A stretch of DNA of 32,000 nt, taken from Haloferax volcanii DS2 (lineage in GTDB: Archaea > Halobacteriota > Halobacteria > Halobacteriales > Haloferacaceae). The position numbers were made by a program, and so were the translations under genes. The notes below the pieces were generated by a model. That model searched no databases and had not been told where the DNA came from. It saw only the letters and a list, made by a program, of their open reading frames with translations. Where the stretch lies: contig NC_013966.1 in the NCBI RefSeq assembly GCF_000025685.1, forward strand, positions 603,787 through 635,786. The letters are read 5' to 3'. How positions within the stretch are numbered: position 1 is the first letter of the stretch; the number at the start of each line of letters is the position of its first letter. Positions 7,048-27,505 of the stretch are shown here, one piece after another.

Positions 7048-7820
7048 GACTCGTCCTCCGGTTCGGCGTGGGCGTGGCCGTGACCGTGGTCGTGGTCGAG
7101 CACGCGCTGGTTCGCGCCGTAGGCCGCGGCGAGGGCGTCGCTGTCGGCGAAGTCGTCGGGGTCGCCGTGGAAGTACAGCCGCTTGTTGAGACAGGCGATT
7201 CGGGACGCGCGGGTCGTGACGACGCCGATGTCGTGTTCGACGAGGACGACCGTCATCCCCTGTTCGTTCAGGTCGCCGAGGAGGTCGTAGAACGCCTCGC
7301 GGGACTCGGCGTCGAGGGCGACCGTCGGCTCGTCGAGCGCGAGCAGGTCGGCTTCGGCCGCGAGCGCCCGGGCGACGAAGACCCGCTGGCGCTGGCCGCC
7401 GGAGAGCGCTCCGACCCGGCGGTCAGCGAGGTCCGCGATATCGACGCGGTCGAGCGCCGCGGCGACCACCTCGCGGTCGGCGGCCGAGAAGCGGCCGAAC
7501 AGGTTCCGCGGGTAGCGCCCCATCCGAACGACTTCGCGGACGGTGACGGGCATGTCGCGGGCCGCGTCCGTCGCGTCCTGTGCGACGTAGGCGACGCGCT
7601 CGCCGTCGGAGAACTCGTGGGCGGGGCGGTCGAACAGCCGCACCTCGCCTCGGGTCGGGCGTTGGAGGCCGAGCATCAGCGTCAGGAGCGTGCTCTTTCC
7701 CGACCCGTTCGGGCCGACGAGCCCGAGGAACTCGCCTTCGGGCACGTCGAGCGAAACCCCGTCCACGACCGGGACGTCGCCGTACGAAAAGGTCACGTCG
7801 CTGAGCGAGACGGCCGTCAT
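7044..7820 (-). CDS. znuC: Metal ABC transporter ATP-binding protein (ZnuC-like)
   Basis: Walker A GPNGSGKST, signature LSGGQRQR and Walker B LLALDEPT. His-rich C-terminus DHDHGHGHAHAEPEDES. The start MTAVSLSDVTFSYG at 7820 overlaps the SBP stop (ATGA), so the longer track start at 7901 is rejected. Confidence 0.9.
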   Translation of the reverse strand: MTAVSLSDVTFSYGDVPVVDGVSLDVPEGEFLGLVGPNGSGKSTLLTLMLGLQRPTRGEVRLFDRPAHEFSDGERVAYVAQDATDAARDMPVTVREVVRMGRYPRNLFGRFSAADREVVAAALDRVDIADLADRRVGALSGGQRQRVFVARALAAEADLLALDEPTVALDAESREAFYDLLGDLNEQGMTVVLVEHDIGVVTTRASRIACLNKRLYFHGDPDDFADSDALAAAYGANQRVLDHDHGHGHAHAEPEDES

Positions 7821-8824
7821 TGCGCGCCGAGCGCCGTCCGGAGCGACGGGAGGTTCACCTCGCGCATGATGTCCACGTACCCCCAGTCGTTTTCCTCCCA
7901 CTCAGTCATTACGCCGGGAAGCGGCGTGAGCGGGAGCACGTTTTCGGCGTCCGTCTCGGAGACGAGTTGTTGCGCGGCGCGGTCGGACTCCAGCGGGTCG
8001 ACGAGGACGTGTCGGATACCGTGTTCCTCGATGGTCGCCTGCGCCCGCTCGATGTCCCGCGGCGACGGCTCCTCGTCGGGCGAGATGCCGGTGAGCGCGA
8101 CGATGTCGAGGTCGTAGCGGTCGGCCAAGTAGCCGTAGGCGTCGTGGCCGGCGACGAGAAGCACGTCGCGCTCGCGGTCCGCGAGGCCGTCTTCGAATGC
8201 GGCGTCGAGTTCCGAGAGCGTCTCGCGGTAGGCGTCGGCGTTGGCGGCGTAGGCGTCGGCGTTCGCGGCATCGACCGACTGGAAGGCGTCGCGGAGCGTC
8301 TCGGTCGCGGTGGCGACCCGCGTGGGGTCCAGCCAGAAGTGCGGGTCGAGTTCGCCGTGGTCGTGCGTCTCCGACTCCTCGGCGTGCTCGTCGTCGTGGA
8401 CGTGCCCGTCCGCGCCGATTTCGTGGAGTTCCACGTCGGCGGAAGCGTCGACTTCGGAGACACCCGAGTCGTCGGCTTCGAGCGAGGTGCGGATGTCGTC
8501 GGCCCACGGCTGAAAACCGGGCATTCCGTGGACGAACAGGTCGGATTCGAGCACCCGACCCTGCACGTCCGGGCCGGGCTCCCAGCCGTGGCCGTGCTGG
8601 CCGATGGGGACGAGCGTCTCGACGGACGCGGCGTCGCCAGCGACGTGGCGCGCCACGTCCCCGAAGACGAAAAAGGAAGCCGTCGCCGTCGTCTCCGGGG
8701 CGGCGGGTGAGTCGGTCGAACCAGCCGAATCGGACGAGTCATCACCGCCGAGACAACCCGCGAGGCCGACGGCGGCGCTTCCGGCGACTGTCGCGAGGAA
8801 CCTGCGTCGGGTCTTCGTTCGCAT
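7817..8824 (-). CDS. znuA: Metal ABC transporter substrate-binding lipoprotein (ZnuA/TroA family)
   Basis: Tat plus lipobox MRTKTRRRFLATVAGSAAVGLAGCLGG. Cluster A-I SBP motifs (GHGWEP, LDPHFWLDP). The acidic His-rich loop HVHDDEHAEESETHDHGE is typical of zinc-specific ZnuA. Confidence 0.85.
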   Translation of the reverse strand: MRTKTRRRFLATVAGSAAVGLAGCLGGDDSSDSAGSTDSPAAPETTATASFFVFGDVARHVAGDAASVETLVPIGQHGHGWEPGPDVQGRVLESDLFVHGMPGFQPWADDIRTSLEADDSGVSEVDASADVELHEIGADGHVHDDEHAEESETHDHGELDPHFWLDPTRVATATETLRDAFQSVDAANADAYAANADAYRETLSELDAAFEDGLADRERDVLLVAGHDAYGYLADRYDLDIVALTGISPDEEPSPRDIERAQATIEEHGIRHVLVDPLESDRAAQQLVSETDAENVLPLTPLPGVMTEWEENDWGYVDIMREVNLPSLRTALGAQ

Positions 8825-13660: not shown

Positions 13661-15019
13661 TCAGCGACCGACGCCGCCGCGTTCGGCCGCGAGCGTCCCG
13701 AGCACCCACGCGCTCACGCCGGGTGTCTCACGCGCGGCGAACTCGGCGGTCGCGTACTGCGCGAGCGCGTTTCGCGCGGCCCGAGGGTCGCCGTCCTCGT
13801 AGTAGTCGTCGCGGAAGTAGCCGTCTCCGCGGGCGACCATGTGGGCGATATCGACCAACGCGCGCCGCGTCAGGTGCGGGTTCGACCCGTCCGAACGGGC
13901 GGCTTCGAGGGCTTCGAGCGCGCCGAGTTTCGCGTCCCTGACCGCGGCCGCGGACTCGGCCGACTCGTACCGGCCTCGCTTGACCGCCGTGACGGCGTCC
14001 TCGAACGCCCGGCGGTGCGTCTCAGCGGTATGAGCGCCCACGAGCGCGGTGGCGAAGCGGTCGCTTCGGAGGCCCTCACGGGCGTCTCGAAGCCCGCGTT
14101 CGACTTCGACGAACGTCTCCACCAGCAGGTCCTTGGCCGGCGTGGATTCGAGTTGTTCGAGGTCGAACCCCTCGCCCGCGACGACGGCTTCGAGCCCTCT
14201 CTCCTCGGGATACTCGGCCCGGCGGTCCTCGGTGACGCCGCCGAGCGAGGACGCGGTCGACGCGAACGCGTCGGTGAAGTCTATCGGGTCGGCAATCGAC
14301 GCCAGATAGCGGTCGCGGACGTGGTGCGCGCCGTCGAGCGACGCTCGCGCCGACTCGACCGCGTCGAGCAGTTCACCGACTCGCGGGGCGCTGTCGGCGT
14401 AGCGGCCGTACTCGTCGGCGTTGTCGAGAGACCGGGCCGCCCCCGCGACGAGGTTCTCGACGGCCTCGTACACGACGAGCGCCCGGTCGGGGTCGTTACC
14501 GAGGTAGCGCGTGGCGCGCTGGAACGACTCGATATCCGCGCGGACCGATTCGGCCTCGTCGCGCACGTCGGCCTCGGTGAGGTCACCGACTGCGGCGTCG
14601 TAGGTTCCCTTCGCCATCGCCGCGGCCCCGCGAGCGTAGCGCAGTCCCTGAAGCGTCTCGAAGGGCGACTCGTCGGTGTCCGAGGGGGCGAGGGCCGCGG
14701 TAGCGTCTGCGTACGCCTCGGCGTAGACGTTCCGAACGGCCTCGTTCGGAACCTCCTCCGGGGACATCGTCTCGGGGCAGGAATCGAGGAGCTCGCGGGC
14801 GCGGCCGCGGCTCTGTTCGAGGAACGAATCAGCAATCGGAGCCGGAACGCGGGCCGGGAACGCCGGCGACCCGAGTTCCATGACCTCCCGGAGCGCCGCC
14901 GGGTCGAGCGTCGGGTCATCGGAGTCAGATTCGCCCGCGTCGAGGGCGGTACAGCCCGCGAGTCCGGCGACCCCGACTCCGGCGAGCGAGGCGAGCACGT
15001 CGCGTCGCGTTCGGGACAT
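13661..15019 (-). CDS. Tat lipoprotein of unknown function (large, helical, acidic)
   Basis: 452 aa. MSRTRRDVLASLAGVGVAGLAGC is a Tat RR plus lipobox. The rest is Ala/Glu/Asp/Arg-rich with no motif I recognise. Confidence 0.7.
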   Translation of the reverse strand: MSRTRRDVLASLAGVGVAGLAGCTALDAGESDSDDPTLDPAALREVMELGSPAFPARVPAPIADSFLEQSRGRARELLDSCPETMSPEEVPNEAVRNVYAEAYADATAALAPSDTDESPFETLQGLRYARGAAAMAKGTYDAAVGDLTEADVRDEAESVRADIESFQRATRYLGNDPDRALVVYEAVENLVAGAARSLDNADEYGRYADSAPRVGELLDAVESARASLDGAHHVRDRYLASIADPIDFTDAFASTASSLGGVTEDRRAEYPEERGLEAVVAGEGFDLEQLESTPAKDLLVETFVEVERGLRDAREGLRSDRFATALVGAHTAETHRRAFEDAVTAVKRGRYESAESAAAVRDAKLGALEALEAARSDGSNPHLTRRALVDIAHMVARGDGYFRDDYYEDGDPRAARNALAQYATAEFAARETPGVSAWVLGTLAAERGGVGR

Positions 15020-15020
15020 C

Positions 15021-15632
15021 TCAGGCGTCCTCCGTCTCGGTTCGGAGCGACGACGGGATGCGGCAACTGCTTCCGCCGCCGTGGCCCCAACTCGACTCGC
15101 CCTGCGACGAGTAGGGCAGTCGGACCAGCGAGGCGACGACGTGGCGGTCGTCCACGGAGCACTCGACCGACGCAGGCCGGAGCGGGCGACAGAAGTCGAG
15201 GTCGACGACGCTGTCCGGCGGGTGCGTGACGTACAGCAGTTTCACGCGGTGGCAGGCGTCCGTCCGGTGCTGGGTGATGACGAGCGTCTGTTCGTCGAAA
15301 TCCGTCTCGTCGATGAACGCGCGGGCCTCGTCGATACCGTCGGTTTCGGCCGCGAGCGCGACGTTTTCGCGTTCCTCGTCGGTGGTGACGAGGAAGTCGT
15401 CGAGGTACAACGACTCCGTGTCCTCGTCGTCGCGGGCGGCGTCCCGGAAGACGGCGGCCTCGGCGTCGTTGCGGAGTTGGAGGTGGTCGTAGTCGGTGAC
15501 GAGCGTGTCCGGGGAGGGACCGGACGGCACGTCCGAACTGGAACTGGACCCCTCGCCGGAACACCCGGCGAGCGCGGCGACGAGCGACGCGCCGCCGGCG
15601 CGGAGGACCTGTCTGCGGGTCGGCAGGGACAT
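15021..15632 (-). CDS. Tat lipoprotein of unknown function (four Cys)
   Basis: 203 aa. MSLPTRRQVLRAGGASLVAALAGC is a Tat RR plus lipobox. Cys residues occur at TDACHRV, DFCRPL, VECSV and SSCRIP. Its stop lies 1 nt from the start of the downstream lipoprotein gene. Confidence 0.7.
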   Translation of the reverse strand: MSLPTRRQVLRAGGASLVAALAGCSGEGSSSSSDVPSGPSPDTLVTDYDHLQLRNDAEAAVFRDAARDDEDTESLYLDDFLVTTDEERENVALAAETDGIDEARAFIDETDFDEQTLVITQHRTDACHRVKLLYVTHPPDSVVDLDFCRPLRPASVECSVDDRHVVASLVRLPYSSQGESSWGHGGGSSCRIPSSLRTETEDA

Positions 15633-15742
15633 CTATCGGTTCCCCAACCGAACGCCGGCGGTATGTGTTTTCCGATGCACTGGGTCGCCGCCGGCCGAAC
15701 CGCGGGACATTTCCCCGACGGTCGCCTCGTCTCGACCGACAG

Positions 15743-16315
15743 ATGCGCGAGGACGAGTTGGCGACGCGGGTGGTCGAGCACTTCCGGGCGGCCTTCGACG
15801 ACGTGGAGATTCACCTCGAAGAGCCGTACGACCACTACGGGAACCGCGGCGTCGCCGACGTGTACGTCCGGGTGCGGACGCCCGAGCCGGTGGACTACCT
15901 CATCGAACTCAAGGCCGACGCCGCCGTCCGCCACGCCACCGGCGCGAACGAGATACTCCGCCAGTACCGCCGCATGGAGCGCTACTTCTACAAGGACGAC
16001 GAGCACGCCATCCGGACGAAACTCGGCCGCGAGGGGCCGGGCGTCCACGCGCTGTTGCTGTTCGCGCCGACGAAACGCTGCGTCGAACACGTCCGGGAAC
16101 ACGCCGCCCTGTACGAGTCGGTCGACCCCGACGCGACCGTCGAAGGCGTCGAGGCCGCCCGCAAAGTGGCCTTTCTGACGAACCTCGACCGCGCGCCCGA
16201 AGGCGAACTCGGTTTTCTGTCGCTCAACGGGCCGCTCGCGTTCGACTCGGTCGCCTTCCGCGAGGCCGTCCCGTCGGGGTCGCGGCTCGCGGACGCCCTC
16301 TGGGGCGACGACTAG
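15743..16315 (+). CDS. Hypothetical protein with PD-(D/E)xK (NucS/DUF91-like) nuclease-fold signature
   Basis: 190 aa from MREDELATR. GVADVYVRV...(13 aa)...YLIELKADAA....EILRQYRR fits the D...ExK...Q core arrangement of restriction-endonuclease-like folds. The C-terminal ~100 aa are unassigned. Confidence 0.55.
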   Translation: MREDELATRVVEHFRAAFDDVEIHLEEPYDHYGNRGVADVYVRVRTPEPVDYLIELKADAAVRHATGANEILRQYRRMERYFYKDDEHAIRTKLGREGPGVHALLLFAPTKRCVEHVREHAALYESVDPDATVEGVEAARKVAFLTNLDRAPEGELGFLSLNGPLAFDSVAFREAVPSGSRLADALWGDD

Positions 16316-16353
16316 CGGACACGCTCATACACCCCCCGTTCGTAGGGGCTGGC

Positions 16354-16812
16354 ATGGGAACGATTCGAGAGTCGGTTCGAATCCCGTTGGGGGACCTCCG
16401 TCAGCAGGTCGCTGACAGCTTCGGCGTCGCGGCGTCGCTCGTCGAGATACACGGCATCCGGCTCGAGGACGGGGCAATCGAAGTCGACGCGAGCTATCCC
16501 GACGGCGAGGACGTGCCGGTCGTCGAACTGTTCGTCACCGACCCCGCCGGGAACACCGAGTCCTACGTCACCGAGTTGGACGGCGCGAAGAACCTCCTCA
16601 TCGCCGGCGAGGACGTGCTCGTCGAACTCGTGGACTACGACCCCGAGCGCGGCGAGGTGTTCGTCTCGGTGAAACACCGACAGGACGGCGAGCTGGTGAC
16701 CGTCCTCGGCTGCGGCGAGAAGTGGGTGATTCCGGTCGGGCGCGACGGCGTCGAGGAGTCCATCCGCTGTCGGATTCAGAGCGCCGTCGGGCCGACGGGC
16801 GACGACTCCTGA
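16354..16812 (+). CDS. Small acidic hypothetical protein
   Basis: 152 aa from ATG 16354, 38 nt after the preceding gene. Strong halophilic composition and GC3 bias. No recognisable motif. Confidence 0.6.
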   Translation: MGTIRESVRIPLGDLRQQVADSFGVAASLVEIHGIRLEDGAIEVDASYPDGEDVPVVELFVTDPAGNTESYVTELDGAKNLLIAGEDVLVELVDYDPERGEVFVSVKHRQDGELVTVLGCGEKWVIPVGRDGVEESIRCRIQSAVGPTGDDS

Positions 16813-16829
16813 CGGCGAAGCCGCCCAAG

Positions 16830-17297
16830 CTACCCCTCGTATTCGACGTAGGAGACGCAGTACCCCTCGGGATCGACTTCGCCCGCGACGATGGCGCACG
16901 CGCCCACGCCGTCCCCGTTTTTGTCCTCGATGTAGTACCGACAGGTCGAACACTGCCGGCCCTCGCTCGGTTCGTCCTGATACGAGACGGCCTCCTGCGA
17001 CGAGAGGCTGTCGGGGTTGCGCTGGGTGCCGTCGAGGGACGTGGCCGTCGCGTACGCCTCGGGGACGCCCCCGGTCGAACCCGACGACTGCGTCGTCGTC
17101 GCGGTCGTCTCGGACGGCTCGGCCCCGCCGCCGCCGGAACAGCCGGCCAATCCCGCCATCGCGGCGGTCCCGGCGAGCCAGATGAACCGTCGTCGGGTGC
17201 GGTCGGAATCGCCGGCGTCGCGGGCGTCTCGGCTCCGCATCGGTCGGGTCGCTCGCTCGCTCGCGTCTCTGCGTGGCGTCCGCTCGTCGTCTCCCAT
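16830..17297 (-). CDS. High-potential iron-sulfur protein (HiPIP)-like Tat lipoprotein
   Basis: Tat plus lipobox RTRRRFIWLAGTAAMAGLAGC. The C-terminal Cys pattern C-x2-C-x14-C-x12-C (QCSTCRYY...GACAIV...GYCVSY) matches HiPIP spacing. The start is either ATG 17297 or ATG 17240. Confidence 0.6.
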   Translation of the reverse strand: MGDDERTPRRDASERATRPMRSRDARDAGDSDRTRRRFIWLAGTAAMAGLAGCSGGGGAEPSETTATTTQSSGSTGGVPEAYATATSLDGTQRNPDSLSSQEAVSYQDEPSEGRQCSTCRYYIEDKNGDGVGACAIVAGEVDPEGYCVSYVEYEG

Positions 17298-17456
17298 GCC
17301 AATCTCTGACGCGCGGCGTCGGCAAAACCCAGCCAGCCGTTTCTCGTGTGGCAAGAATTGCGGACGCGTTGATACTGTCACGCCACTAAGTGGCACGGAT
17401 GCGCGAATCTGGCAGGCACGGACCGGAAAAGACGGAGACGGTCAGCCTCCCGCGTC

Positions 17457-20144
17457 TCACTCGTCGGGCCGAATCCGGGCGAGTCGCATCGCGTTGCCCG
17501 TCACGCCCATGGTCATCCCGGCGTCGCCCGCGAGGACCGCGAGCGCGACCGAGACGTAGCCGAAGGGGACGCCGACCGCGAGGACGGCCTTGATGGCGAG
17601 CGACGCCCAGATGTTCTGCCGGATGACGCCGTTGGCCCGGTGGGACAGTTCGTAGAGGTACGGGAGCTTCGAGAGGTCGTCAGCCATGAGGGCGATATCG
17701 GCCGTTTCGAGGGCGGTGTCGGTTCCGGCCGCGCCCATGGCGACGCCGACCGTGGCAGTGGCGAGCGCCGGGGCGTCGTTGATGCCGTCACCGACCATGG
17801 CGACCGAGCCATACTCGTCGAGCAGTCCCTCGACGGCGGCGGCCTTGTCCTCCGGGAGGAGGCCCGCGCGGAAGTCGTCGACGCCGACCTGCTCGGCGAT
17901 GGCGCGGGCGGTCCCCTCGTTGTCGCCGGTGAGCATGACGACCGAGAGGCCGGCCTCGCGGAGCTTTGCGACCGTCTCGCGGGCGTCGGGCCGGACCTCG
18001 TCAGCGACGGCGACGACGCCTTCGAGGTCGTCTTCGGTCCCGACGACGACGACCGTCTTGCCCTCGGACTGGAGGCGCGGAATCGTGTCCTCGACGAGGT
18101 TGAGACAGCCGTGGCGGTCACAGAGCTGTCGGACCTCCGCGGAGAGCGCCTCGCCGGGGCCGGTGACGTGGACGTGTTCGAGGTCGAAGCCGAGTTCCTC
18201 GAAGAAGCCGGGTTTGCCGGCGAAGTGCGGGACGCCGTCGAGGTCGGCGCGGACGCCCTTGCCGGTGACGCTCTCGAAGTCGTCGACCTCGCGGGCGGCG
18301 ACGCCCGTGCCCTCGGCGTGGGAGACGATGGCCTCGCCGATGGGGTGTTCGCTCCGGGCTTCGAGGCCGCGGGCGCACCGAAGCACGTCCTCTTCGGAGT
18401 TCCCGTTGAGCGGGACCACGTCGGTGACGGTGAGTTCGCCCTTCGTGAGCGTGCCCGTCTTGTCCACGGCGACGGCCTCGACCGAGCCCATCGCTTCGAG
18501 GTGCGTGCCGCCCTTGATGAGCACGCCGTTTTTCGCGGCCGACGTGATGCCCGAGACGACAGAGACGGGCGTCGAGATGACGAACGCGCAGGGGCAGGCG
18601 AGCACGAGCATCGTGATGCCGTAGACGAACCACGTCACCCAGTCGAGGCCGAACGCGATGGGCGGAATCGCCGCGACCGCGACCGCGACGACGACCATGA
18701 GGGGCGTGTAGTACGACGAGAAGCGCTCGACGAACTGCTCGCGTTCGGTCTTGTTGGCCTGCGCGTCTTCGACCATCGAGACGATGCGCGAGAGGGTGTC
18801 GTCGCCCGCGGCGGAGTCGACGCGGACTTCGAGGTAGCCCGCCTCGTTGACGGTGCCCGCGAACACCTCGTCGCCCTCGGCCTTGTCGACCGGGACGGAC
18901 TCGCCGGTGATGGGGGCCTGATTGACCGCGCTGTCGCCTTCGACTACCGTCCCGTCGACGGGAATCTTCTCGCCGGGTTTGACGGCGACCACGTCGCCGA
19001 CGACGAGTTCCTCGACGGGGACGACCGTCTCGACGCCGTCTCGGAGGACCGTCGCCTCGTCGGGCGAGAGGTCCATCAGCTCTCGGAGGGAGTCGCGCGT
19101 GCGGTCCATCGAGTAGCGTTCGAGCAGTTCGGAGACGCTAAAGAGGAACGCGAGCGTCGCCGCCTCGAAGTAGAGGCTCGTCGGCCCGGAGATGAGGCTG
19201 GCGGCCACGGCGCTGAGAATCGCCGTCGACATCAGGAAGTCGATGTCGAGACTGCGGTTCTTCGCGGAGTAGTAGCCGTTGCGGAGGATGGCCTGCCCGC
19301 CGACCGCGGCCCCGAGGACGTACAGCAGTTCGGCGGCCGTGAACGAGACGCCGAGGACGCTGGCGACGACGAGTTCCAGCCCGAGTAGGTACTCCGCGGC
19401 GATGCCCGCCGCGAGGAAGCCGCCGCTTATCCACGTTTTCACCGCGCGCGTACTGCGCCAGACGCTCCCGCGGTCCGCGCCGGTGGTCCCGCCGTGGGAG
19501 TGAGAGTGGCCGTGGCCGTCGTCGCCGTCGACGGCGTCAGCGGCGTCGGTTCCGGTGACCTCGTAGCCGGCGGCTTCGATGGCCGAGACGACCGAATCGA
19601 GGTCCGCGTCGGCCGCGAGCGTGACGACAGCGGTTCCGGTCGTCGGGCGCGTCTCGTACGACAGCACGCCCGGCGCACCGTTGAGCGCGTTTTCGACCTT
19701 TCCGGCGCAGGAGGCGCAGTCCATGTCCGGAACGGTGAACGAGACCTCGCGGGTCGAGGGGCCGTCTTCGACGGCGTAGCCCGCGCCCTCGATGTTGCCC
19801 CGGATGTCGTCGGGCGTGGTCCGGTCGGCGTCGTACTCGACGACGAGTCGGCCGGTCGTCGCCCGCGGGTCGATGTCGCCGACGCCGTCGAGTTTCCGGA
19901 CGCTGGACTCGACCTTGTTCGCACAGGAGGCGCAGTCCATATCCGGCACGGAGAACTCCGCGCGGGTCGAATCAGCGGGCCCACCGGCGGAGTCGTCGCC
20001 CCCGGTCTCGCCGGCCGCCCCCGACTCCGACGCACCCTCGACCCCGCAGGCGTCGTCGCACCCGCACCCGTCGTCATCTGGCGGGTTAGTGGACGCGTCC
20101 GCCTCGTCGTCGGGGGCGGGCTTGCGTCCGTCGTGTTCGCTCAT
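17457..20144 (-). CDS. zntA: Heavy-metal P1B-type ATPase, Zn/Cd/Pb (ZntA/CadA-like) subtype
   Basis: 895 aa with two HMA domains carrying the MDCASCAxKVE motif, as in ZntA GMDCAACA. A Cys-rich N-terminus (GCGCDDAC) and a His-rich linker (GHGHSHSHGG) are present. Core motifs: TM6 CPC (LACPCAFVIS), DKTGTLT, GDGINDAP. The last TM reads LAGDAGMTMGVTGNAMRL, a ZntA-like Asp rather than the CopA-like MSxSS. Confidence 0.85.
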   Translation of the reverse strand: MSEHDGRKPAPDDEADASTNPPDDDGCGCDDACGVEGASESGAAGETGGDDSAGGPADSTRAEFSVPDMDCASCANKVESSVRKLDGVGDIDPRATTGRLVVEYDADRTTPDDIRGNIEGAGYAVEDGPSTREVSFTVPDMDCASCAGKVENALNGAPGVLSYETRPTTGTAVVTLAADADLDSVVSAIEAAGYEVTGTDAADAVDGDDGHGHSHSHGGTTGADRGSVWRSTRAVKTWISGGFLAAGIAAEYLLGLELVVASVLGVSFTAAELLYVLGAAVGGQAILRNGYYSAKNRSLDIDFLMSTAILSAVAASLISGPTSLYFEAATLAFLFSVSELLERYSMDRTRDSLRELMDLSPDEATVLRDGVETVVPVEELVVGDVVAVKPGEKIPVDGTVVEGDSAVNQAPITGESVPVDKAEGDEVFAGTVNEAGYLEVRVDSAAGDDTLSRIVSMVEDAQANKTEREQFVERFSSYYTPLMVVVAVAVAAIPPIAFGLDWVTWFVYGITMLVLACPCAFVISTPVSVVSGITSAAKNGVLIKGGTHLEAMGSVEAVAVDKTGTLTKGELTVTDVVPLNGNSEEDVLRCARGLEARSEHPIGEAIVSHAEGTGVAAREVDDFESVTGKGVRADLDGVPHFAGKPGFFEELGFDLEHVHVTGPGEALSAEVRQLCDRHGCLNLVEDTIPRLQSEGKTVVVVGTEDDLEGVVAVADEVRPDARETVAKLREAGLSVVMLTGDNEGTARAIAEQVGVDDFRAGLLPEDKAAAVEGLLDEYGSVAMVGDGINDAPALATATVGVAMGAAGTDTALETADIALMADDLSKLPYLYELSHRANGVIRQNIWASLAIKAVLAVGVPFGYVSVALAVLAGDAGMTMGVTGNAMRLARIRPDE

Positions 20145-20162
20145 ACTCGGCAGTAGTCAGGG

Positions 20163-20183
20163 ACAGGTTAATAATTCACCTGT
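20163..20183. promoter_or_regulatory. Inverted repeat ACAGGTTAA-TAA-TTCACCTGT over the ATPase promoter
   Basis: 9-bp arms (8/9 complementary) at -19 to -39 relative to the ATPase ATG (20144). The AT-rich centre coincides with the expected TATA position. Confidence 0.5.
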
Positions 20184-20239
20184 TAGAAAACGGGGTTTAG
20201 ATATTGTAACTTCACAAATTGAAGCCAGTTAGTTAATAA

Positions 20240-21649
20240 TCAGAGGAACGGCGGGTTCGCGGTCGGCAGCGAGATGAGCCACAGGCTGAGAATCGTGTAG
20301 AGAATCATCACCGCGACGAAGGGGAACTGGCTCCGGACGGCTTGCAGTCTGCTGGGGAAGGTTCGGTAGGCCTGCGAGTGCGCCACCCACACCGCGAGCA
20401 GGTGGCCGAGGAGGACGAACGCGACGTTCAGGCCGCCGAACCACGCGGGGAGCGTGAGCACGACCGGGTTCGCCGGCGACGACAGCGGCGACGACAACGC
20501 GTGGACGAGCATCGGTGACAGCGAGACGAAGAAGCCGACGTAGTGCGCGAGGTGGTAGCCCGCGGCGATAGCGAGCAACGAGGGCGCGAATGTGACCGCG
20601 AGGTCGAGCGGCGTCTCGAAGGTGTCGATGCGGCGGGCGGTCACCCGCGCGGCGAGGACGTAGAGACCGAGGAAGACCCCGAAGCCGCCGAGGTAGAGCA
20701 GTCCGTAGACGAAAAGCGGCGGGAGGCCGACGCCCGCGAGCCACCGGACGGCCGCCGCGCCCTGTTCGGTCGTGACGAAACCGCTGAAGGTGAGTTCCCA
20801 GACGAGGACGACCGCGACGGCCACGTCACCGAGGTCGGTCAGGTCGTCGTCGGTGACGAGTCGCATCCCCGGCAGGCGGAACGAGAGGCCGTCGTCGTCG
20901 AGGCGAACCGGCGCGACCCGGCCGTAGAACTGGAGGAAGACGGAGACGGGGTCGACCTTGTCGAACCACGCGTCCGCGCCGACGGCGACCGCGCCGGCGA
21001 GCGTGACGACCGAGTAGGCGACGAGCGCGGTCGCGAGGACCGAGGGCCGGGTCGTGACGGCGGTCGCGGTCTCGACCCAGACGAGCGCGAGAATCCCCGC
21101 GACCGCGGGCCAGCGGCCGAGTCGCTCGGGGTACGAGACGAAGCCGTTCGGAACCGCCGAGACGAGGGTCCGCCACGGGTTCAGCGCGCGCCACGTATCA
21201 GCGACGAGATACGAGAGCATCGTGTAGCCGGCGCGGAGCCCCGCGAAGACGACGATGACGGCGAAGTTGACGGTCGGGACCTGCGGGCCGGTGTAGCCGA
21301 GGGAGACCGCGAGCGCGAGGACCGCGAGGCCGAGGACGCCGCCCGCGACTCGGAGCGCGCGCAGGAGTCCGTCCGAGACGCCCGCATCGGGACCGGTCTG
21401 CCACAGGTGGACGCGCTCGATGAATCGGCGGTCGGTGACGAAACTGGCGAGGAGCGCGGAGGCTCCGACGGTCGCGCCGCCGGTGGCGAGATAGAGCCAC
21501 CGCGGGACCGCGAGGTTGTCCTGCGACGCGCCCGCGAGTCCGACCGCGGCGTTGCTCGCGGCCGCCGGGTCCGCGAGGAGCGACAGAAGACTCGCCAGCA
21601 GGAGACCGAGACCGAATCGTCTGAGGGAGATGGGTCGGAGTCGGGTCAT
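20240..21649 (-). CDS. Polytopic membrane protein of unknown family (about 12 TM)
   Basis: 469 aa from MTRLRPISLRRFGLGLLLASLL, with the ATG overlapping the upstream stop as ATGA. Hydrophobic throughout. His-containing helices GYHLAHYVGF and GHLLAVWVAH. I see no REXXE (FTR1) motif. Confidence 0.7.
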   Translation of the reverse strand: MTRLRPISLRRFGLGLLLASLLSLLADPAAASNAAVGLAGASQDNLAVPRWLYLATGGATVGASALLASFVTDRRFIERVHLWQTGPDAGVSDGLLRALRVAGGVLGLAVLALAVSLGYTGPQVPTVNFAVIVVFAGLRAGYTMLSYLVADTWRALNPWRTLVSAVPNGFVSYPERLGRWPAVAGILALVWVETATAVTTRPSVLATALVAYSVVTLAGAVAVGADAWFDKVDPVSVFLQFYGRVAPVRLDDDGLSFRLPGMRLVTDDDLTDLGDVAVAVVLVWELTFSGFVTTEQGAAAVRWLAGVGLPPLFVYGLLYLGGFGVFLGLYVLAARVTARRIDTFETPLDLAVTFAPSLLAIAAGYHLAHYVGFFVSLSPMLVHALSSPLSSPANPVVLTLPAWFGGLNVAFVLLGHLLAVWVAHSQAYRTFPSRLQAVRSQFPFVAVMILYTILSLWLISLPTANPPFL

Positions 21650-21903
21650 GATGCGAAGACGATGAACAGCATGAGGAAGCCGAAGTACAGCAGCACGATG
21701 ACGCCGAGCGCACGGACGCGGAACGACTTGAGTTCCGCTTCCTCCTCGTGGTACGCCTCGCGGTACGCCTCGACTTCTTCGTCGTCGAGGTCGTCGGGGT
21801 GTCTCGCACCCCGGTGGAGGACCAGTAGTCGCTCGGTCGGGTACGCCTCGCCGCACGCTGTGCAGGTGTGGCGGTCGCGCGTCGCGTCTGTGTCCGTGGT
21901 CAT
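21646..21903 (-). CDS. Membrane-anchored C2H2 zinc-finger protein
   Basis: 85 aa from MTTDTDATRDRH. CTACGEAYPTERLLVLHRGARH is C-x2-C-x12-H-x4-H. An acidic linker leads to the C-terminal TM helix ALGVIVLLYFGFLMLFIVFA. Confidence 0.65.
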   Translation of the reverse strand: MTTDTDATRDRHTCTACGEAYPTERLLVLHRGARHPDDLDDEEVEAYREAYHEEEAELKSFRVRALGVIVLLYFGFLMLFIVFAS

Positions 21904-22016
21904 CCGAGAGTCACCGAGAGTTCGGGGTTGTTGGCTTCTGAACGTTTCCATCGCGCCGTCCGCGTCGGGGTGCCCGGGTCGCCCGACGGGGGGTGAGGCG
22001 GCGACAAAGCGACACC

Positions 22017-23081
22017 TCAGACCTCGAACCGCATCGGCTCGAACGCCATGAACGCCGTCTCGTAGCCGTCGTGGCGGGCGACCTGCGGCGGCACGTCAAC
22101 CGAGAGCGTCAGCGTATCGCCGGATTCGACGCCCTCGACGCCCGTGCCGTAGTGGTAGCTGAGGTCGGGGTCGAGCGTCCGGGCGAGTCGCGCGCCGTCG
22201 AGGGTCGTCGTCCCGTCGCGTTCGAGCGTGGCCCGAACGCCCATCATCGGCAGGACGAACTCGTTGTGCGGCGTCCGCGCCGAGACGTAGAGGTACGCAC
22301 CGTCGACGCCGAAGCGGGAGCCGTCGTCGACGACGAAGGCGTCGAACAGGGCGTCGGCGCTCGTCTGCCGGCCGAGGTGGCGACCGGGGAGGTCGCTGAC
22401 GGCGGGGGCTTTGCCGGTCGGAACGCCCATCATCTCCATCGCCGGGACCGCGCCGCGCGACCCGGCCTCGTCGCCGAGGCGGCGCAGTTCCACGTCGTAG
22501 AGGTCGTCCGTGTCGAACGCGAACTCGAACGTCGCCGTCTCGGCCGACTCGAACCGCCCGGCGAACGAGCCGGTTCGGGAAAGCGAGGTGCCGCCGACGT
22601 GCACGCGGGCCTCGTAGTCGCCCTCGCCGTCGAGGACGTAGTTCGAGCCGTAGTGCATCCCCATCTGCTGGGAGAGCATCGGGTAGGCGACCTCCTCGCT
22701 CACGAGGTCGCCGTCGCGGAGAATCTCGATGGAGACGCCGGCGTCCAGCGGGAGGACGGTCCCCGTCTCGGCGTCCCACAGCGACGCCATGAGGTGAATC
22801 GAGTCGTCGGCCTCGACGACGGTCTTCCCGAGGTCGGAGCCGGCGGCGGTCCAGAAGCGATGAGGGTACGAGTAGGTGAGCGCGACGCCGTACGGGCCGG
22901 CGGTCGTCTTCCCGTACATCTTCATCCCTTCGGTGACGGCGGGGAGGTAGACCGCGTCCGGGCGGTCGTCGACGAGCGGCGGGTCGCGCCACGCCGACTG
23001 CTGTTCGAAGCCGCCGAGACAGCCCGCGGTGGCGGCGAGTGCGCCGATGCCGAGTGTCTTGAGTGCGTCTCGTCGTTTCAT
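22017..23081 (-). CDS. Tat lipoprotein with two P19/FetP/Tpd (COG3470)-like domains, putative metal (iron) uptake component
   Basis: MKRRDALKTLGIGALAATAGC is a Tat-like signal plus lipobox. Half 1 (HLMASLWD...YPMLSQQMGMHYGSNYVLDGEGDYEARVHVG) and half 2 (TPHNEFVLPMMG...LSYHYGTGV...VDVPPQVARHDGYE) both resemble the H..M...HYG..v core of P19-type periplasmic metal-binding proteins. Similarity is judged by eye. Confidence 0.55.
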   Translation of the reverse strand: MKRRDALKTLGIGALAATAGCLGGFEQQSAWRDPPLVDDRPDAVYLPAVTEGMKMYGKTTAGPYGVALTYSYPHRFWTAAGSDLGKTVVEADDSIHLMASLWDAETGTVLPLDAGVSIEILRDGDLVSEEVAYPMLSQQMGMHYGSNYVLDGEGDYEARVHVGGTSLSRTGSFAGRFESAETATFEFAFDTDDLYDVELRRLGDEAGSRGAVPAMEMMGVPTGKAPAVSDLPGRHLGRQTSADALFDAFVVDDGSRFGVDGAYLYVSARTPHNEFVLPMMGVRATLERDGTTTLDGARLARTLDPDLSYHYGTGVEGVESGDTLTLSVDVPPQVARHDGYETAFMAFEPMRFEV

Positions 23082-23281
23082 GGTGTCTCGATGGCGTCTC
23101 GCCGGCTCGTGGTGGGCATGGGTACGATGTCGTGCGTCTCGGGAAGCGGGGAGTCACCCGTGCTAGCGGCCCGGTGGCAATGTCGGTTGCGCTTCCGCGT
23201 CGGGTTTCGAGGGGTGGTGCCGTCGTTATCAACTCCCGGATTACCGCACCACGTTTATATTTTCGCTCGCGCTCCGTTCGG

Positions 23282-24931
23282 ATGATGAACGACTCGCCGC
23301 TCGACGGTCTCGACGCCCGCGCCATCGCGCTGGCGTATCTCGGCTTCGGGACCGCGGGCATCCTCGGCGGCGAGCTACTCCTGTCGGCCACGCTGGGTGC
23401 GCCCCCGGCCCCCGAGGCCGAACTCGTCAAGGGACTCGCGTTCGTCGCCGTCTCCACCGCGTTCGTCTGGGCGCTCGTCTCCCGAAAGAACCGTCGTATC
23501 GAGCGCCAGCAGGCGTCGGTTCGGTCGTCGCTGGACCAGCTTCGGACCGTGGTCGCCGCGTCGCCGGTGCCGATTATCGCGGTCACGCCCGAGGGGCGCG
23601 TGACGAGGTGGAACGACGCCGCCACGGAGACGTTCGGCTGGGGGCGCGAGGAGGTGCTCGGCGGACCGCTCCCCTACGACGCGGGCGCGGACAGCGAGGA
23701 TAGCGAGGAGATTATCCGGCGAACCATCGCAGAAAACGGCCTCTCGGACGTTCAAGTCGAGCGACAGCCGGCGGACGGCGACCTCCGCGAGTTTCGGCTT
23801 TCGACGGCGGTCGTCCGCGACGCCGACGGCGAGGTGGCCGAAATCGTCGGCGTCTTCGTCGACGTGACAGAACAGCAGCGGCGGGAGCGCCGCCTCCGCG
23901 AGTTCGAGCAGGCCGTCGAGCAGGCGGGCCACGCGATTTACCTCACCACGCCGGACGGGGAGATTACGTACGTCAACCCGGCGTTCGAGGAGACGACGGG
24001 CTACGACGCCGCGGAGGTCATCGGTGAACCGGCGTCGATACTCAGTTCGGGCGAGATGCCGGAGACGTACTACGAGCGACTGTGGCGCGCCCTCCAGTCC
24101 GGCGAGACGTGGCAAGAGCGAATCATCGACCGACGGAAGAGCGGCGAGCTCTACACCGCGATACAGACCATCGCGCCCATCGAGAGCAACGGCGACATCG
24201 ACGGCTACGTCGCCATCCAGTCCGACGTCACCGAGTCGGAGGTGACCAGACAGCGACTCGGGGTCCTCAACCGGATGTTCCGGCACAACCTCCGAAACCG
24301 GATGAACGTCATCGAGGGCTACGCGGAGCTGATTCGCCAGAACGAGGCCACGGACACCGACGAAGAACTCGCCGAGGCTGCCGAGGCCATCGTCGAGGCG
24401 GCGGACGACCTCGCGTCGCTCTCCGAGAAGGCGCAGACGGTCTCGGACGCCCTCGAATCCGAGGGAACGCCGCGGCGCGTCTCGGCGCTCGTCGAAGACG
24501 CCGTGTCGAGGGCCGAATCGACGTACCCGGAGGCGGCGGTGCGGACGGACATCGAGACGGGGCTCTACGCGCGAGTCGACAGCCGCGTCGGCGCGGCGCT
24601 CGACGAGCTAATCGCGAACGCGCTCAAACACGGCGGCGAAACGGTCCGTATCGACGTGCGCCGAACCGAAGCCGACGACTCGAAACTCGTCGTGCGCGTC
24701 GACGACGACGGGCCGGGAATCCCCGACGAGGAGTGGCGAGTCATCAAGCGCGGCGAGGAGACGCCGCTCGAACACGGGACCGGGATGGGCCTGTGGCTGG
24801 TCCACTGGGTCGTCAAGAAAGCGGGCGGGAGCATGGAGTTGGAACCGTCTTCCCTCGGGGGGACGGCCGTGACGCTGAAGCTTCCAATCGGGTCAGAGCG
24901 GCCGCGGACGTGGTTTTCGACCGACGAGTGA
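23282..24931 (+). CDS. Membrane-associated PAS-domain sensor histidine kinase
   Basis: 549 aa from MMNDSPLDG. Two N-terminal hydrophobic helices and two PAS-like blocks (...VTRWNDAATETFGW..., ...ITYVNPAFEETTGY...). H-box FRHNLRNRMNVIEGY, N-box ELIANALKHG and G-boxes DDGPGIP / GTGMGLWLV. Confidence 0.85.
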   Translation: MMNDSPLDGLDARAIALAYLGFGTAGILGGELLLSATLGAPPAPEAELVKGLAFVAVSTAFVWALVSRKNRRIERQQASVRSSLDQLRTVVAASPVPIIAVTPEGRVTRWNDAATETFGWGREEVLGGPLPYDAGADSEDSEEIIRRTIAENGLSDVQVERQPADGDLREFRLSTAVVRDADGEVAEIVGVFVDVTEQQRRERRLREFEQAVEQAGHAIYLTTPDGEITYVNPAFEETTGYDAAEVIGEPASILSSGEMPETYYERLWRALQSGETWQERIIDRRKSGELYTAIQTIAPIESNGDIDGYVAIQSDVTESEVTRQRLGVLNRMFRHNLRNRMNVIEGYAELIRQNEATDTDEELAEAAEAIVEAADDLASLSEKAQTVSDALESEGTPRRVSALVEDAVSRAESTYPEAAVRTDIETGLYARVDSRVGAALDELIANALKHGGETVRIDVRRTEADDSKLVVRVDDDGPGIPDEEWRVIKRGEETPLEHGTGMGLWLVHWVVKKAGGSMELEPSSLGGTAVTLKLPIGSERPRTWFSTDE

Positions 24932-26084: not shown

Positions 26085-26394
26085 AAATCGGGAGCGCAGC
26101 AGTTCGAGCGAGTGCGTCGCGCGAGCGGGAGAGTCGGATTCGCGTGTGTAGCGCGTCAGGTCGGCGGTTCAGCACCGACCTCCCCTGCGGATGGTACGCA
26201 GGTGGGATGGAACAGCTTAAATCCCGAATTCGACGGTTAGGAGCGCCCTAACCCCTCGAATAGACCGGTAAGTCGCTGCGAAATTAAATATATCCGGAAC
26301 ATACGGAAGGCCAACAGGAGCCGGAACATGTGGCCGCTCGCGGTCCCGTGCAGGTGGGCACGAGGTGGGTCAGAGGCCGGTCCTGGGTAGAACA

Positions 26395-26826
26395 ATGGAT
26401 ATCAAGAAATTCCTTAGCGAATCACGCGCAGTCTCGCCGGTCATCGGCGTCATCCTCATGGTCGCGATTACCGTCATCCTCGCGGCCGTCATCGGAACCT
26501 TCGTCCTCGGTCTCGGTGACCAGGTCGGTGACACCGCCCCGCAGGCGAGTTTCAGCTTCGACTACGACGGTGCACAGGAAATCACGATCACGCACGAGAG
26601 TGGTGATTCCATCGCCAGCGACGAGCTGAGCGTCGTCATCCCGTCGGGCCTAACCGCGGATACTGTGTCGAAGAAGACCGGCTCCGACGACAGCATGAAC
26701 GCCGGTGACACCATCGTCGTTGAACTTGCAGCCGGCGACGAACTTGAGGACGGCGACCAAGTGCGCCTCGTCTGGACCTCCGAATCCGGTTCCAACTCCG
26801 CGACCCTGCAAACGTACACGCACTAA
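26395..26826 (+). CDS. pilA: Archaeal type IV pilin (class III signal peptide, DUF1628-type)
   Basis: 143 aa from [41 protein letters not shown], with a prepilin-peptidase site (R-A|V-S) and an H-domain like that of Haloferax PilA pilins. Conserved C-terminus [14 protein letters not shown]. Confidence 0.85.
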
Positions 26827-27064: not shown

Positions 27065-27505
27065 ATGCAAATCAAGACAATGTTCACGGAGTCCCGCGCA
27101 GTCTCGCCGGTCATCGGCGTCATCCTCATGGTCGCGATTACCGTCATCCTCGCGGCCGTCATCGGCACCTTCGTTCTCGGTCTCGGCGACCAGGTCGGTG
27201 ACACCGCTCCCCAAGCGAGTTTCACGTTCGACTACGACGGAACGGAACTGACCATCACGCACGAAAGCGGCGCGCAGATTGACGGCGATTTAGTCACTAT
27301 CGCTGGCGATGTCAACGTCACCGATTCGAGTGACGCAAACAAGTGGTCGACCCTCGGCTCAGACACCATCAGCGCGGGTGAGTCCGTCGTCGTCCAAGAC
27401 ACTGACGAGGACGGCTTTGCCAACGGCGACACAGTCCGCGTCGTCTGGACCTCCGAATCCGGCTCCAACTCCGCGACGCTCCAGCGGTGGACCTACAACG
27501 CCTGA
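27065..27505 (+). CDS. pilA: Archaeal type IV pilin paralogue (class III signal peptide, DUF1628-type)
   Basis: 146 aa. [41 protein letters not shown]. It has the same H-domain as the upstream pilin, with 71 nt identical at DNA level, and the same C-terminal [14 protein letters not shown] block. Confidence 0.85.
   Translation: MQIKTMFTESRAVSPVIGVILMVAITVILAAVIGTFVLGLGDQVGDTAPQASFTFDYDGTELTITHESGAQIDGDLVTIAGDVNVTDSSDANKWSTLGSDTISAGESVVVQDTDEDGFANGDTVRVVWTSESGSNSATLQRWTYNA

Follow-up and report, generated by a model that had tools for sequence, protein, structure and literature searches.

The window analysed here, a stretch of 32,000 nucleotides of Haloferax volcanii DS2 (contig NC_013966.1, positions 603,787 to 635,786), contains a putative metal module located on pHV4, in which the genes for a lipoprotein (HVO_A0627), a small C2H2 zinc-finger protein and a polytopic membrane protein follow one another on the minus strand and lead into cadA. 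The lipoprotein belongs to the P19 superfamily by both sequence and fold and is the product of a tandem duplication, and the membrane protein falls outside all described families. The three proteins probably constitute a functional unit for the acquisition or handling of metal across the membrane. More tentatively, and with somewhat less than even confidence, we read this unit as a surface acquisition module of the Ftr/Efe kind, in which the permease is non-homologous and iron is the substrate.

The lipoprotein gene (D4GRT5; 354 amino acids; database name 'Iron transporter') occupies positions 22017-23081, the C2H2 gene positions 21646-21951 (101 amino acids as called) and the membrane-protein gene positions 20240-21649 (469 amino acids; HVO_A0625, a number assigned by inference), all of them on the minus strand. 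According to the sequence, 65 nucleotides (21952-22016) separate the stop codon of the lipoprotein gene from the called start of the finger, whose own stop codon overlaps the start codon of the membrane protein in the tetranucleotide ATGA, which implies translational coupling of the two. The three genes run in the same direction and probably form a single transcription unit. They are genuine genes and not chance open reading frames (ORFs), since each of them has hundreds of homologues (E down to 1e-293) and their synteny is conserved. An initial annotation of this DNA had already described three co-directional genes upstream of an ATPase, the ATGA overlap, and the motifs GYHLAHYVGF, GHLLAVWVAH, HYG and ARHDGYE, and all of these were found again in the sequence and its translations.

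The N-terminus of HVO_A0627, MKRRDALKTLGIGALAATAGC, contains a twin-arginine motif and a lipobox with Cys21, so that residues 1-21 make up a twin-arginine translocation (Tat) signal with its lipobox. Two domains follow. The first (residues ~38-205; nucleotides 22467-22970, minus strand) is P19-like according to profile, fold and alignment, and the second (residues ~222-354; nucleotides 22020-22418, minus strand) is the Pfam domain DUF7350, matched over residues 230-352 with E=8.5e-53 and 178 bits against a cut-off of 27. Within the N-terminal domain, residues 116-165 match PF10634 ('Fe2+ transport protein') with 22.4 bits, a marginal value that is nevertheless above the gathering score of 21, and the same match is precomputed for many orthologues of HVO_A0627. 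When a profile of 25 orthologues was compared with the PDB, the best match was FtrA of Brucella (8vv5, E=2.2e-6), followed more weakly by FtrA-P19 of Rubrivivax, FetP of E. coli, and HftA and Tp34 of Treponema; in the opposite direction, genuine FetP used as a tblastn query matches the N-terminal domains of the lipoproteins with E down to 1e-4. The AlphaFold model, with a mean predicted local distance difference test score (pLDDT) of 85, has the immunoglobulin-like beta-sandwich fold of P19, and in a Foldseek search of the PDB its best 36 matches are all P19, FetP, FtrA, Tp34 or HftA structures (E ~1e-5, target template-modelling score (TM-score) ~0.66). The two halves of the protein are homologous to each other (hhalign probability 96%, E=2.5e-9), which makes DUF7350 a second, diverged copy of the P19 domain. 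The idea of two tandem halves resembling P19/FetP/Tp34, formulated in the initial annotation from short motifs, was thus borne out by profile searches and structure prediction alike.

In the P19 homodimer, every copper site is built from three ligands of one chain and a fourth histidine provided by the other chain, a scheme with which the names of the P19-family variants deposited in the PDB agree. The residues of HVO_A0627 were placed in this scheme by aligning the FetP gene from an E. coli plasmid and the P19 gene of Pasteurella with both halves of the lipoprotein. The copper ligand His42 of P19 (His44 of FetP) corresponds to His96, in the sequence IHLM, in the N-terminal domain and to tyrosine in the C-terminal domain; Met88 (Met90) corresponds to Met135 and to Thr/Leu; and His95 (His97) corresponds to His143 and to the mostly conserved His310. 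The histidine given in trans, which lies in the FetP sequence RH127TDSET, is replaced by Thr171 in the N-terminal domain and is present as His337, in RH337DGYET, in the C-terminal one. His96, Met135 and His143 of the first domain and His337 of the second, all at copper-ligand positions, are invariant in the alignment, as is Trp102. Because each half lacks the ligands that the other half keeps, the fused protein would retain one composite copper site out of two, formed by His96, Met135 and His143 together with His337, and this arrangement indicates that DUF7350 is the diverged P19 domain that supplies the trans-histidine. The acids of the neighbouring site for iron or manganese are not conserved. 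Glu44 and Asp92 of P19 and Glu46 of FetP are functional residues of that site, as the titles of PDB variants also record; in HVO_A0627 the first acidic position (P19 Glu44, FetP Glu46) is an invariant Met98 in the N-terminal domain and a tyrosine in the C-terminal domain, and the second (P19 Asp92, FetP Asp94) corresponds to Gln139/Met140 in the N-terminal domain and cannot be placed with confidence in the alignment of the C-terminal one. Since two features that define the family functionally, the acidic iron site and an FTR1 partner, are missing, the most fitting description of HVO_A0627 is that of a P19-derived variant.

The membrane protein was initially described as having 12 transmembrane (TM) helices, a count that has to be corrected. 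The secondary structure of the AlphaFold model (pLDDT 79; predicted TM-score, pTM, 0.80), hydropathy and the positive-inside pattern together give 11 hydrophobic helices, of which the first is an N-terminal signal or anchor helix and the other 10 are TM helices. No Pfam or NCBIfam entry matches the protein, ten of its distant relatives or the bacterial members of its family; a Foldseek search of the PDB with the model returned nothing at E<=1e-3 (best TM-score 0.2), and the family profile against PDB sequences gave only chance matches to haem oxygenase with E ~1. Membership of FTR1 (PF03239) was rejected: the Pfam match is missing, comparison of three family alignments with FetM by hhalign gave probabilities of 0.1-0.6%, and there is no REXXE motif, nor any E-x-x-E, anywhere in the protein, while FetM has three REXXE motifs; the absence of REXXE had already been remarked on. 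Membership of CopD (PF05425) was rejected as well, for want of a Pfam match and with an hhalign probability against E. coli YebZ of <=0.1% (the FetM and YebZ sequences were taken from E. coli records). Two database names also had to be discarded as sporadic labels on proteins that are otherwise called hypothetical, namely 'polyferredoxin' (JGI), which is incompatible with a protein that contains no cysteine, and 'fenitrothion hydrolase' (UniRef), for which the literature search found no link between FedA and this membrane family. The comparison with FTR1, CopD and DUF families thus places the protein in no characterised family.

A profile search shows that the family is large, with 3025 clusters at 50% identity at E<=1e-3 and 1576 at E<=1e-10, and that it extends to Chloroflexota, Rubrobacter and metagenome-assembled genomes of Burkholderiales, where its members are annotated as 'hypothetical' or with occasional stray names. 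Throughout the family alignment His369 and His416 are invariant and His424 and Tyr365 nearly so; Glu193 occurs without exception in each of the two sub-alignments, haloarchaeal and bacterial, and the haloarchaeal clade has His81 and His366 as additional invariant residues. The lysine and arginine counts of successive loops alternate (3, 0, 4, 1, 5, 1), which indicates a topology with the N-terminus inside. His366 and His369 belong to TM8, and His416 and His424 to TM9, two adjacent and antiparallel helices; in this topology, His369 and His416 would be located in the middle of the membrane and His366 and His424 closer to the cytoplasm, so that the conserved histidines of TM8 and TM9 look like a translocation pathway. 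The loops of residues 121-128 and 387-401 would be extracellular, and the motifs VTDR (71-74), NPWR (157-160) and RSQ (439-441) cytoplasmic.

The bacterial members of the family provide a second, independent view of its partners. A scan of bacteria and metagenomes with a separate bacterial alignment yielded 80 loci, and in 63 of them a secreted protein of ~130 amino acids is encoded directly upstream on the same strand; most of the others begin too close to the end of a contig for the upstream gene to be judged. Pfam Cupredoxin_1, which we take to be the family of the N-terminal domain of EfeO, is matched by 21 out of 33 of these proteins (best E=1.3e-10), and they share the invariant sequences LHLHGYD and ATGRFP and a third histidine, for a total of three invariant histidines. 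Neither P19 nor FTR1 was found in the bacterial loci, and the cupredoxin type was not found in the haloarchaeal ones. The known periplasmic copper-type partners of FTR1 permeases are P19/FtrA/FetP, on the one hand, and the cupredoxin of EfeO/FtrB, on the other. The exclusive distribution of the two partners therefore means that the membrane family pairs with either P19 or a cupredoxin, both of which are partners of the FTR1 type, and this favours the reading of the family as a permease that stands in for FTR1. On these grounds the 469-amino-acid protein may, although we hold this at slightly less than an even chance, found a large unrecognised family of metal permeases, which in place of FTR1 or CopD would be the membrane partner of extracytoplasmic copper-centre proteins, tandem P19 in haloarchaea and a His-rich cupredoxin in bacteria. 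The initial suggestion of a haloarchaeal variant of a metal-acquisition system is supported, with the refinement that the membrane family is not confined to haloarchaea and is widespread in bacteria together with the cupredoxin-like partner.

Nearly all non-haloarchaeal members, as well as a second haloarchaeal paralogue, begin with a signal peptide that ends in A-x-A and is followed by His-[Ala/Gly]-Phe-Gly-x-Arg-Tyr-Asp-Leu-Pro, which implies a mature N-terminal histidine like that of CopC/YobA; the clade of HVO_A0625 has Ala-Ser-Asn in place of this motif. The paralogue in question is found in Halogranum rubrum (L020:8860-12165), 2 kb away from the main module; it is of the bacterial type (A-S-A followed by His), and in place of P19 its neighbours are a lipoprotein resembling DsbA/thioredoxin and a beta-propeller protein of the PQQ-like type. 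In bacterial members, too, there are neighbours or fusions of the beta-propeller or thioredoxin-like kind (L003, L004 and P0387). Two further features recur in the bacterial branch (P0324, 920 amino acids; P0360, 890 amino acids; L095, L113, L115, L116, L127, L143 and others). Many of its members carry a C-terminal extension of ~400 amino acids that has no Pfam match, and in 16 loci the cupredoxin gene is preceded by that of another conserved secreted protein of ~400 amino acids, which Pfam does not recognise either.

A genome scan with the haloarchaeal alignment identified 80 loci in about 30 genera, which were reduced to 70 non-redundant groups by collapsing those that were near-identical. 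Neighbouring genes were located by tblastn, on which all the synteny counts rest, because a gene caller based on codon usage missed genes in the loci of lower GC content. The lipoprotein gene is near the membrane gene in 56/70 loci (at <=700 bp in 52), either upstream on the same strand (26), downstream and convergent (24) or downstream on the same strand (6). The C2H2 gene is also found in 56/70 loci (at <=300 bp in 54); without exception it shares the strand of the membrane gene, and it usually lies upstream of it, although in Natrialbales it lies downstream. The proposed triad therefore stood as a conserved linkage across haloarchaeal genera and not as a fixed set, given that all three genes are together in 42/70 loci; what never varies is that the membrane gene is accompanied by one or both of the others, and no locus (0/70) lacks both. 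No FTR1 gene was detected with FetM as a tblastn query (E<=0.01) in the window and 82 related haloarchaeal loci (83 sequences), and none of the window genes scanned with Pfam gave an FTR1 match.

The third component is a C2H2 finger of the form C30-x2-C33-x12-H46-x4-H51, after which come an acidic helix and, at the C-terminus, a hydrophobic anchor, in agreement with the tiny membrane-anchored zinc finger described initially. Its start is more probably Met16 (nucleotide 21906), which would give a protein of 86 amino acids like those of other Haloferax. The match of the H. volcanii protein to Pfam DUF7410 is weak (13.6 bits, E=0.065, cut-off 27.5), that of the orthologue encoded in the metal island described below is better (E=0.0017), and that of a Natrialbales orthologue is clear (45.8 bits, E=5.5e-12); all 58 out of 58 unique orthologues retain C-x2-C-x12-H-x4-H and the C-terminal anchor. 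The protein thus appears to be related to DUF7410, with a finger domain that the predicted topology would place in the cytoplasm, and the present analysis points to DUF7410 proteins as partners dedicated to this family of membrane proteins. In the Natrialbales loci (L075, L077, L079, L082-L084) the membrane protein is followed by the C2H2 (DUF7410) protein and the P19 lipoprotein is not adjacent; in one of them (L079:5917-13300) the pair is located beside a subtilase and genes for haem-copper oxidase subunits I+III and II.

Several haloarchaeal loci belong to a 13.4-kb metal island with a lower GC content (52-63%), present as a whole in L048, L050-L055 and L078 and in related form in L044-L047, L049, L059/L060 and L076. 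Its order is CDF (cation diffusion facilitator), CadA-like ATPase, DUF7333, DUF7541, C2H2 protein, membrane protein, two P19-like lipoproteins, DUF7405, PEMT-like protein, DUF7471, HVO_0163-like helix-turn-helix protein and PadR. The assembled genomes of eight species belonging to different genera carry it with a nucleotide identity of 99.99-100% (Haloarcula amylovorans, Haloarcula japonica, Halobaculum, Halorussus, Natronomonas, Halosegnis, Haloparvum and Haloplanus), which points either to a very recent horizontal spread or to cross-contaminated assemblies. Haloferax chudinovii holds both a native module (L006) and a copy of the island type (L049). The transport of the module on a nearly unchanged metal-resistance island across many haloarchaeal genera suggests that it is important in metal-stressed brines.

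Having described the components, a mechanism can be outlined. HVO_A0627, exported by the Tat pathway and anchored by its lipid, would act as a single-chain P19 pseudo-dimer with one copper site that captures the substrate metal at the cell surface, where, in the case of iron, it would probably oxidise Fe2+ to Fe3+, and would then hand the metal to the 10-TM protein. The latter would pass it along the ladder of histidines on TM8 and TM9 to the cytoplasmic face, where the tail-anchored C2H2 protein could serve as acceptor, gate or sensor. The haloarchaeal membrane protein may thus be the missing importer of iron or copper, with the C2H2 protein as its dedicated cytoplasmic receiver.

Iron is the most likely substrate, with copper as a strong rival and zinc as a possibility. 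Iron is favoured by the precedent of P19, by a weak link to DyP peroxidases, by siderophore genes, by a rise of the lipoprotein under hypochlorite and by a result from Rubrivivax. The DyP link concerns DUF7405, which adjoins P19 genes in 12/70 loci and scores 19.5 bits (E=8.7e-4) against the C-terminal family of DyP peroxidases, whose cut-off is 20; in the island loci its gene overlaps the second P19-like gene, and this window has none. The siderophore genes, for both synthesis and uptake, adjoin the module locus of Halostella. Quantitative proteomics of H. volcanii under hypochlorite by stable isotope labelling (SILAC) found HVO_A0627 increased 2.4-fold and ZnuC2 3.7-fold, with CadA down to 0.63-fold (PMC10294847, supplement), so that the module is expressed and is regulated separately from cadA. 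In Rubrivivax efflux mutants, iron uptake by P19/FtrA is needed for tolerance to cadmium and copper (PMC7415376), a result that would explain the linkage of the module to CadA and to islands with CDF transporters.

A number of observations weigh against this reading. The acids of the iron/manganese site are replaced family-wide in haloarchaea, and methionine at position 98 and Gln139/Met140 instead of glutamate and aspartate weaken the case for iron and favour a soft metal. The Halobellus and Natrialbales loci have no adjacent lipoprotein. The resemblance of DUF7405 to DyP is weak, and searches of the PDB with a single sequence and with a 10-sequence profile were blank. Neither an iron-regulator site nor induction by iron starvation was found for the module, and, in the part of the iron-starvation proteome that is available, only CadA is named from this region. 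Lastly, what the data establish directly are the folds, the duplication, the conservation of the ligands in the alignment, the absence of FTR1 from the loci examined and the conserved linkage; the assembly of the copper site in space, the topology, transport and its direction, the substrate metal and the task of the finger are inferences, and the lack of evidence for transport in particular counts against this reading.

The same substitutions sustain the principal alternative, possible although we consider it distinctly less probable than iron uptake, which is that the module acquires or handles copper in the manner of CopC/CopD or YcnI/YcnJ: the Met/His-rich pseudo-dimer would bind Cu(I)/Cu(II) outside, and the membrane protein would import or move copper, for example so that cuproproteins exported by the Tat pathway can be loaded while still in the cytoplasm. 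It is in favour of this idea that the copper ligands are kept, together with the invariant Trp102, while the acids of the iron site are lost to Met98 and Gln139/Met140. The mature N-terminal His-[Ala/Gly]-Phe-Gly of the bacterial relatives recalls E. coli CopC/YobA, their partner is cupredoxin-like with three invariant histidines, and the Natrialbales loci lie beside haem-copper oxidase genes. In addition, a protein with an M-x-C-x-x-C motif, likely an HMA domain, adjoins the lipoprotein in Haladaptatus; it is a 90-amino-acid ORF of Haladaptatus litoreus (L034:8658-8930; MMCNGC), and the likely HMA domain would be CopZ-like. However, the retained copper site speaks for neither metal over the other, because the characterised P19 systems all use copper as a cofactor for iron uptake. 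The ATPase that recurs as a neighbour is of the Zn/Cd type and not of the CopA type, there is no sequence kinship to CopD (hhalign <=0.1%), and a rise under oxidative stress would be unexpected for a copper importer.

The identity of that ATPase raises the question of zinc. A Zn/Cd-type ATPase lies at <=6 kb from the module in 23/70 loci, in three arrangements, and a CDF transporter in 6/70; znuABC is present in the same window, HVO_A0627 and ZnuC2 rise while CadA falls under hypochlorite, and the histidine-rich intramembrane sites would suit Zn(II). The module could accordingly be a zinc-scavenging importer that opposes export by CadA and CDF, with the C2H2 protein as cytoplasmic acceptor or sensor of zinc, or could serve the homeostasis of divalent metals, but we consider this unlikely. 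The methionine-rich substitutions around the site disfavour Zn(II), no ATPase is nearby in 47/70 loci, and both the AT-rich gap of 95 nucleotides and the opposite protein changes argue against an operon shared with cadA. Moreover, we know of no member of the P19 family that acts as a zinc transporter. For its part, CadA was rejected as a core component of the module, given the same 23/70 loci, the gap and the opposite change at the protein level.

To about the same low degree of probability, the membrane protein could be a redox or assembly partner comparable to FtrD or MsrQ, in which the histidines coordinate a metal cofactor or haem b and which passes electrons between the membrane and the extracellular copper protein. 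The position of His369 and His416 at equal depth on adjacent helices, a possible bis-histidine site, is compatible with this, as is the fact that the P19 and cupredoxin partners are both redox copper proteins and that members of the wider family are found near thioredoxin/DsbA-like and beta-propeller proteins. The conserved histidines, however, are just three or four, with spacings of 3 and 8 that do not fit a di-haem bundle; an Fe-S cluster is impossible in a protein without cysteine; Foldseek revealed no structural likeness to known cytochrome b folds; and the bacterial system, with just two genes, leaves no alternative candidate for the permease. That the genes are neighbours by descent alone, with no joint function, is very improbable: the lipoprotein is indeed separated from the membrane gene in Halobellus and Natrialbales, but adjacency survives three rearrangements of gene order and orientation in about 30 genera, the ATGA overlap implies translational coupling, and the pairing of a secreted copper-type protein with the membrane protein recurs independently in bacteria.

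The known systems that come closest are those that combine P19 with FTR1, such as cFtr1-P19 of Campylobacter, FetMP of E. coli, FtrABCD of Brucella, Bordetella and Rubrivivax, and Tp34/HftA of Treponema. HVO_A0627 shares with them the P19 fold and the three copper-ligand positions, its gene also adjoins that of a polytopic membrane protein, and in both cases the fourth histidine would come in trans, from a second subunit in those systems and from the fused second domain here. The differences are that the haloarchaeal protein is a tandem duplication in a single chain with one site retained, instead of a homodimer with two, that the Glu/Asp of the iron site have become Met and Gln/Met, that HVO_A0627 is a Tat lipoprotein, that its membrane partner is not FTR1 and that there is an extra component, the tail-anchored C2H2 protein. 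A second point of comparison is EfeUOB, which consists of an FTR1 permease, EfeO with a cupredoxin and an M75 domain, and the DyP peroxidase EfeB. The Cupredoxin_1-type partner of the bacterial relatives would be of the same family as the N-terminus of EfeO, and DUF7405 of some haloarchaeal loci is weakly DyP-like, just under the Pfam threshold, whereas the systems of the membrane family have neither an M75 domain nor an FTR1 permease. With CopC/CopD (YobA/YebZ of E. coli, YcnJ of B. subtilis) there is a shared two-gene logic, a secreted beta-sandwich copper protein plus a membrane protein that bears histidines; yet the mature N-terminal histidine is on the membrane protein in the bacterial members of the new family and on the soluble CopC in the known system, it is replaced by Ser-Asn in the clade of HVO_A0625, and no homology to CopD was detected. 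Finally, two haloarchaeal Pfam entries that are names without a function have members here: the C-terminal domain of the lipoprotein belongs strongly to DUF7350, and the orthologues of the finger match DUF7410.

What was known of the module before is limited to names, 'iron transporter' or 'DUF7350 domain-containing protein' (NCBI) for the lipoprotein. The literature search found no mention of DUF7350, DUF7410, HVO_A0625 or HVO_A0626, and no report of the pairing of the lipoprotein with the membrane family, of the pseudo-dimer logic, of the dedicated finger partner or of the bacterial branch with cupredoxin. The initial impression that the combination corresponds to no characterised transport system is consistent with these searches, and the permease has a fair chance of representing a categorically new family of transporters. 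Among pathogens, P19-type systems rank as a major route for acquiring iron and, to our knowledge, have so far always been tied to permeases of the FTR1 family. If the proposal is correct, an unrelated and widespread membrane family replaces FTR1 beside P19 and cupredoxin partners, which would add a family to the metal transporters and give a testable function to DUF7350, DUF7410 and a membrane family without a Pfam entry. The lipoprotein would, besides, illustrate how the metal site of a homodimer can be reduced to a fused pseudo-dimer that keeps a single active site. As H. volcanii is genetically tractable, the hypotheses on the metal, on permease versus redox function and on the finger are directly testable.

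The module is surrounded by other genes related to metals. Downstream, cadA (HVO_A0624, 17457-20144, minus strand) encodes a P1B-2 ATPase of the Zn/Cd type with two HMA domains, which matches TIGR01512 with 498 bits against a cut-off of 313.5 and thereby agrees with the initial assignment; the same locus is named CadA in the supplement of PMC11349517. The 95 nucleotides that separate it from the membrane gene (20145-20239) are strikingly AT-rich for this genome, with a direct repeat, ATTATTAAC, close to either end, and may be a promoter or the operator of a metal regulator. Upstream, the lipoprotein gene and that of a PAS-PAS histidine kinase (23285-24931, plus strand; Pfam PAS and HATPase_c matches) diverge from an intergenic region of 203 nucleotides (23082-23284), a distance that had been estimated at about 200. 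This region presumably holds the promoters and regulatory elements of both genes, and no regulator motif was identified in it. The kinase was rejected as a part of the module: by tblastn, full-length matches adjoin the module only in Haloferax loci, and the other matches (L025, L061 and L064) are short, ~30% identical and several kb away.

Further along the window there is a zinc uptake operon of the znuABC type, with an ABC-3 permease (6062-6901), an ATPase (7044-7901), which from the gene order would be ZnuC2 (HVO_A0610), and a ZnuA lipoprotein (7817-8824), as well as a lipoprotein of the copper chaperone-like NosL family (505-1116), so that genes for metal homeostasis abound in this part of pHV4. 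Between cadA and the gene of a pyridine-nucleotide disulphide oxidoreductase lie four ORFs (13661-15019, 15021-15632, 15665-16315 and 16312-17325) without a Pfam match. Two of the four are predicted lipoproteins with a Tat signal and lipobox, and the products of 15665-16315 and 15021-15632 recur beside cadA in other Haloferax loci. On the far side of the kinase, two adjacent pilin-like genes (26365-26826 and 27065-27505) have near-identical N-terminal regions and correspond to the PilA pair of pHV4, approximately HVO_A0632/A0633.

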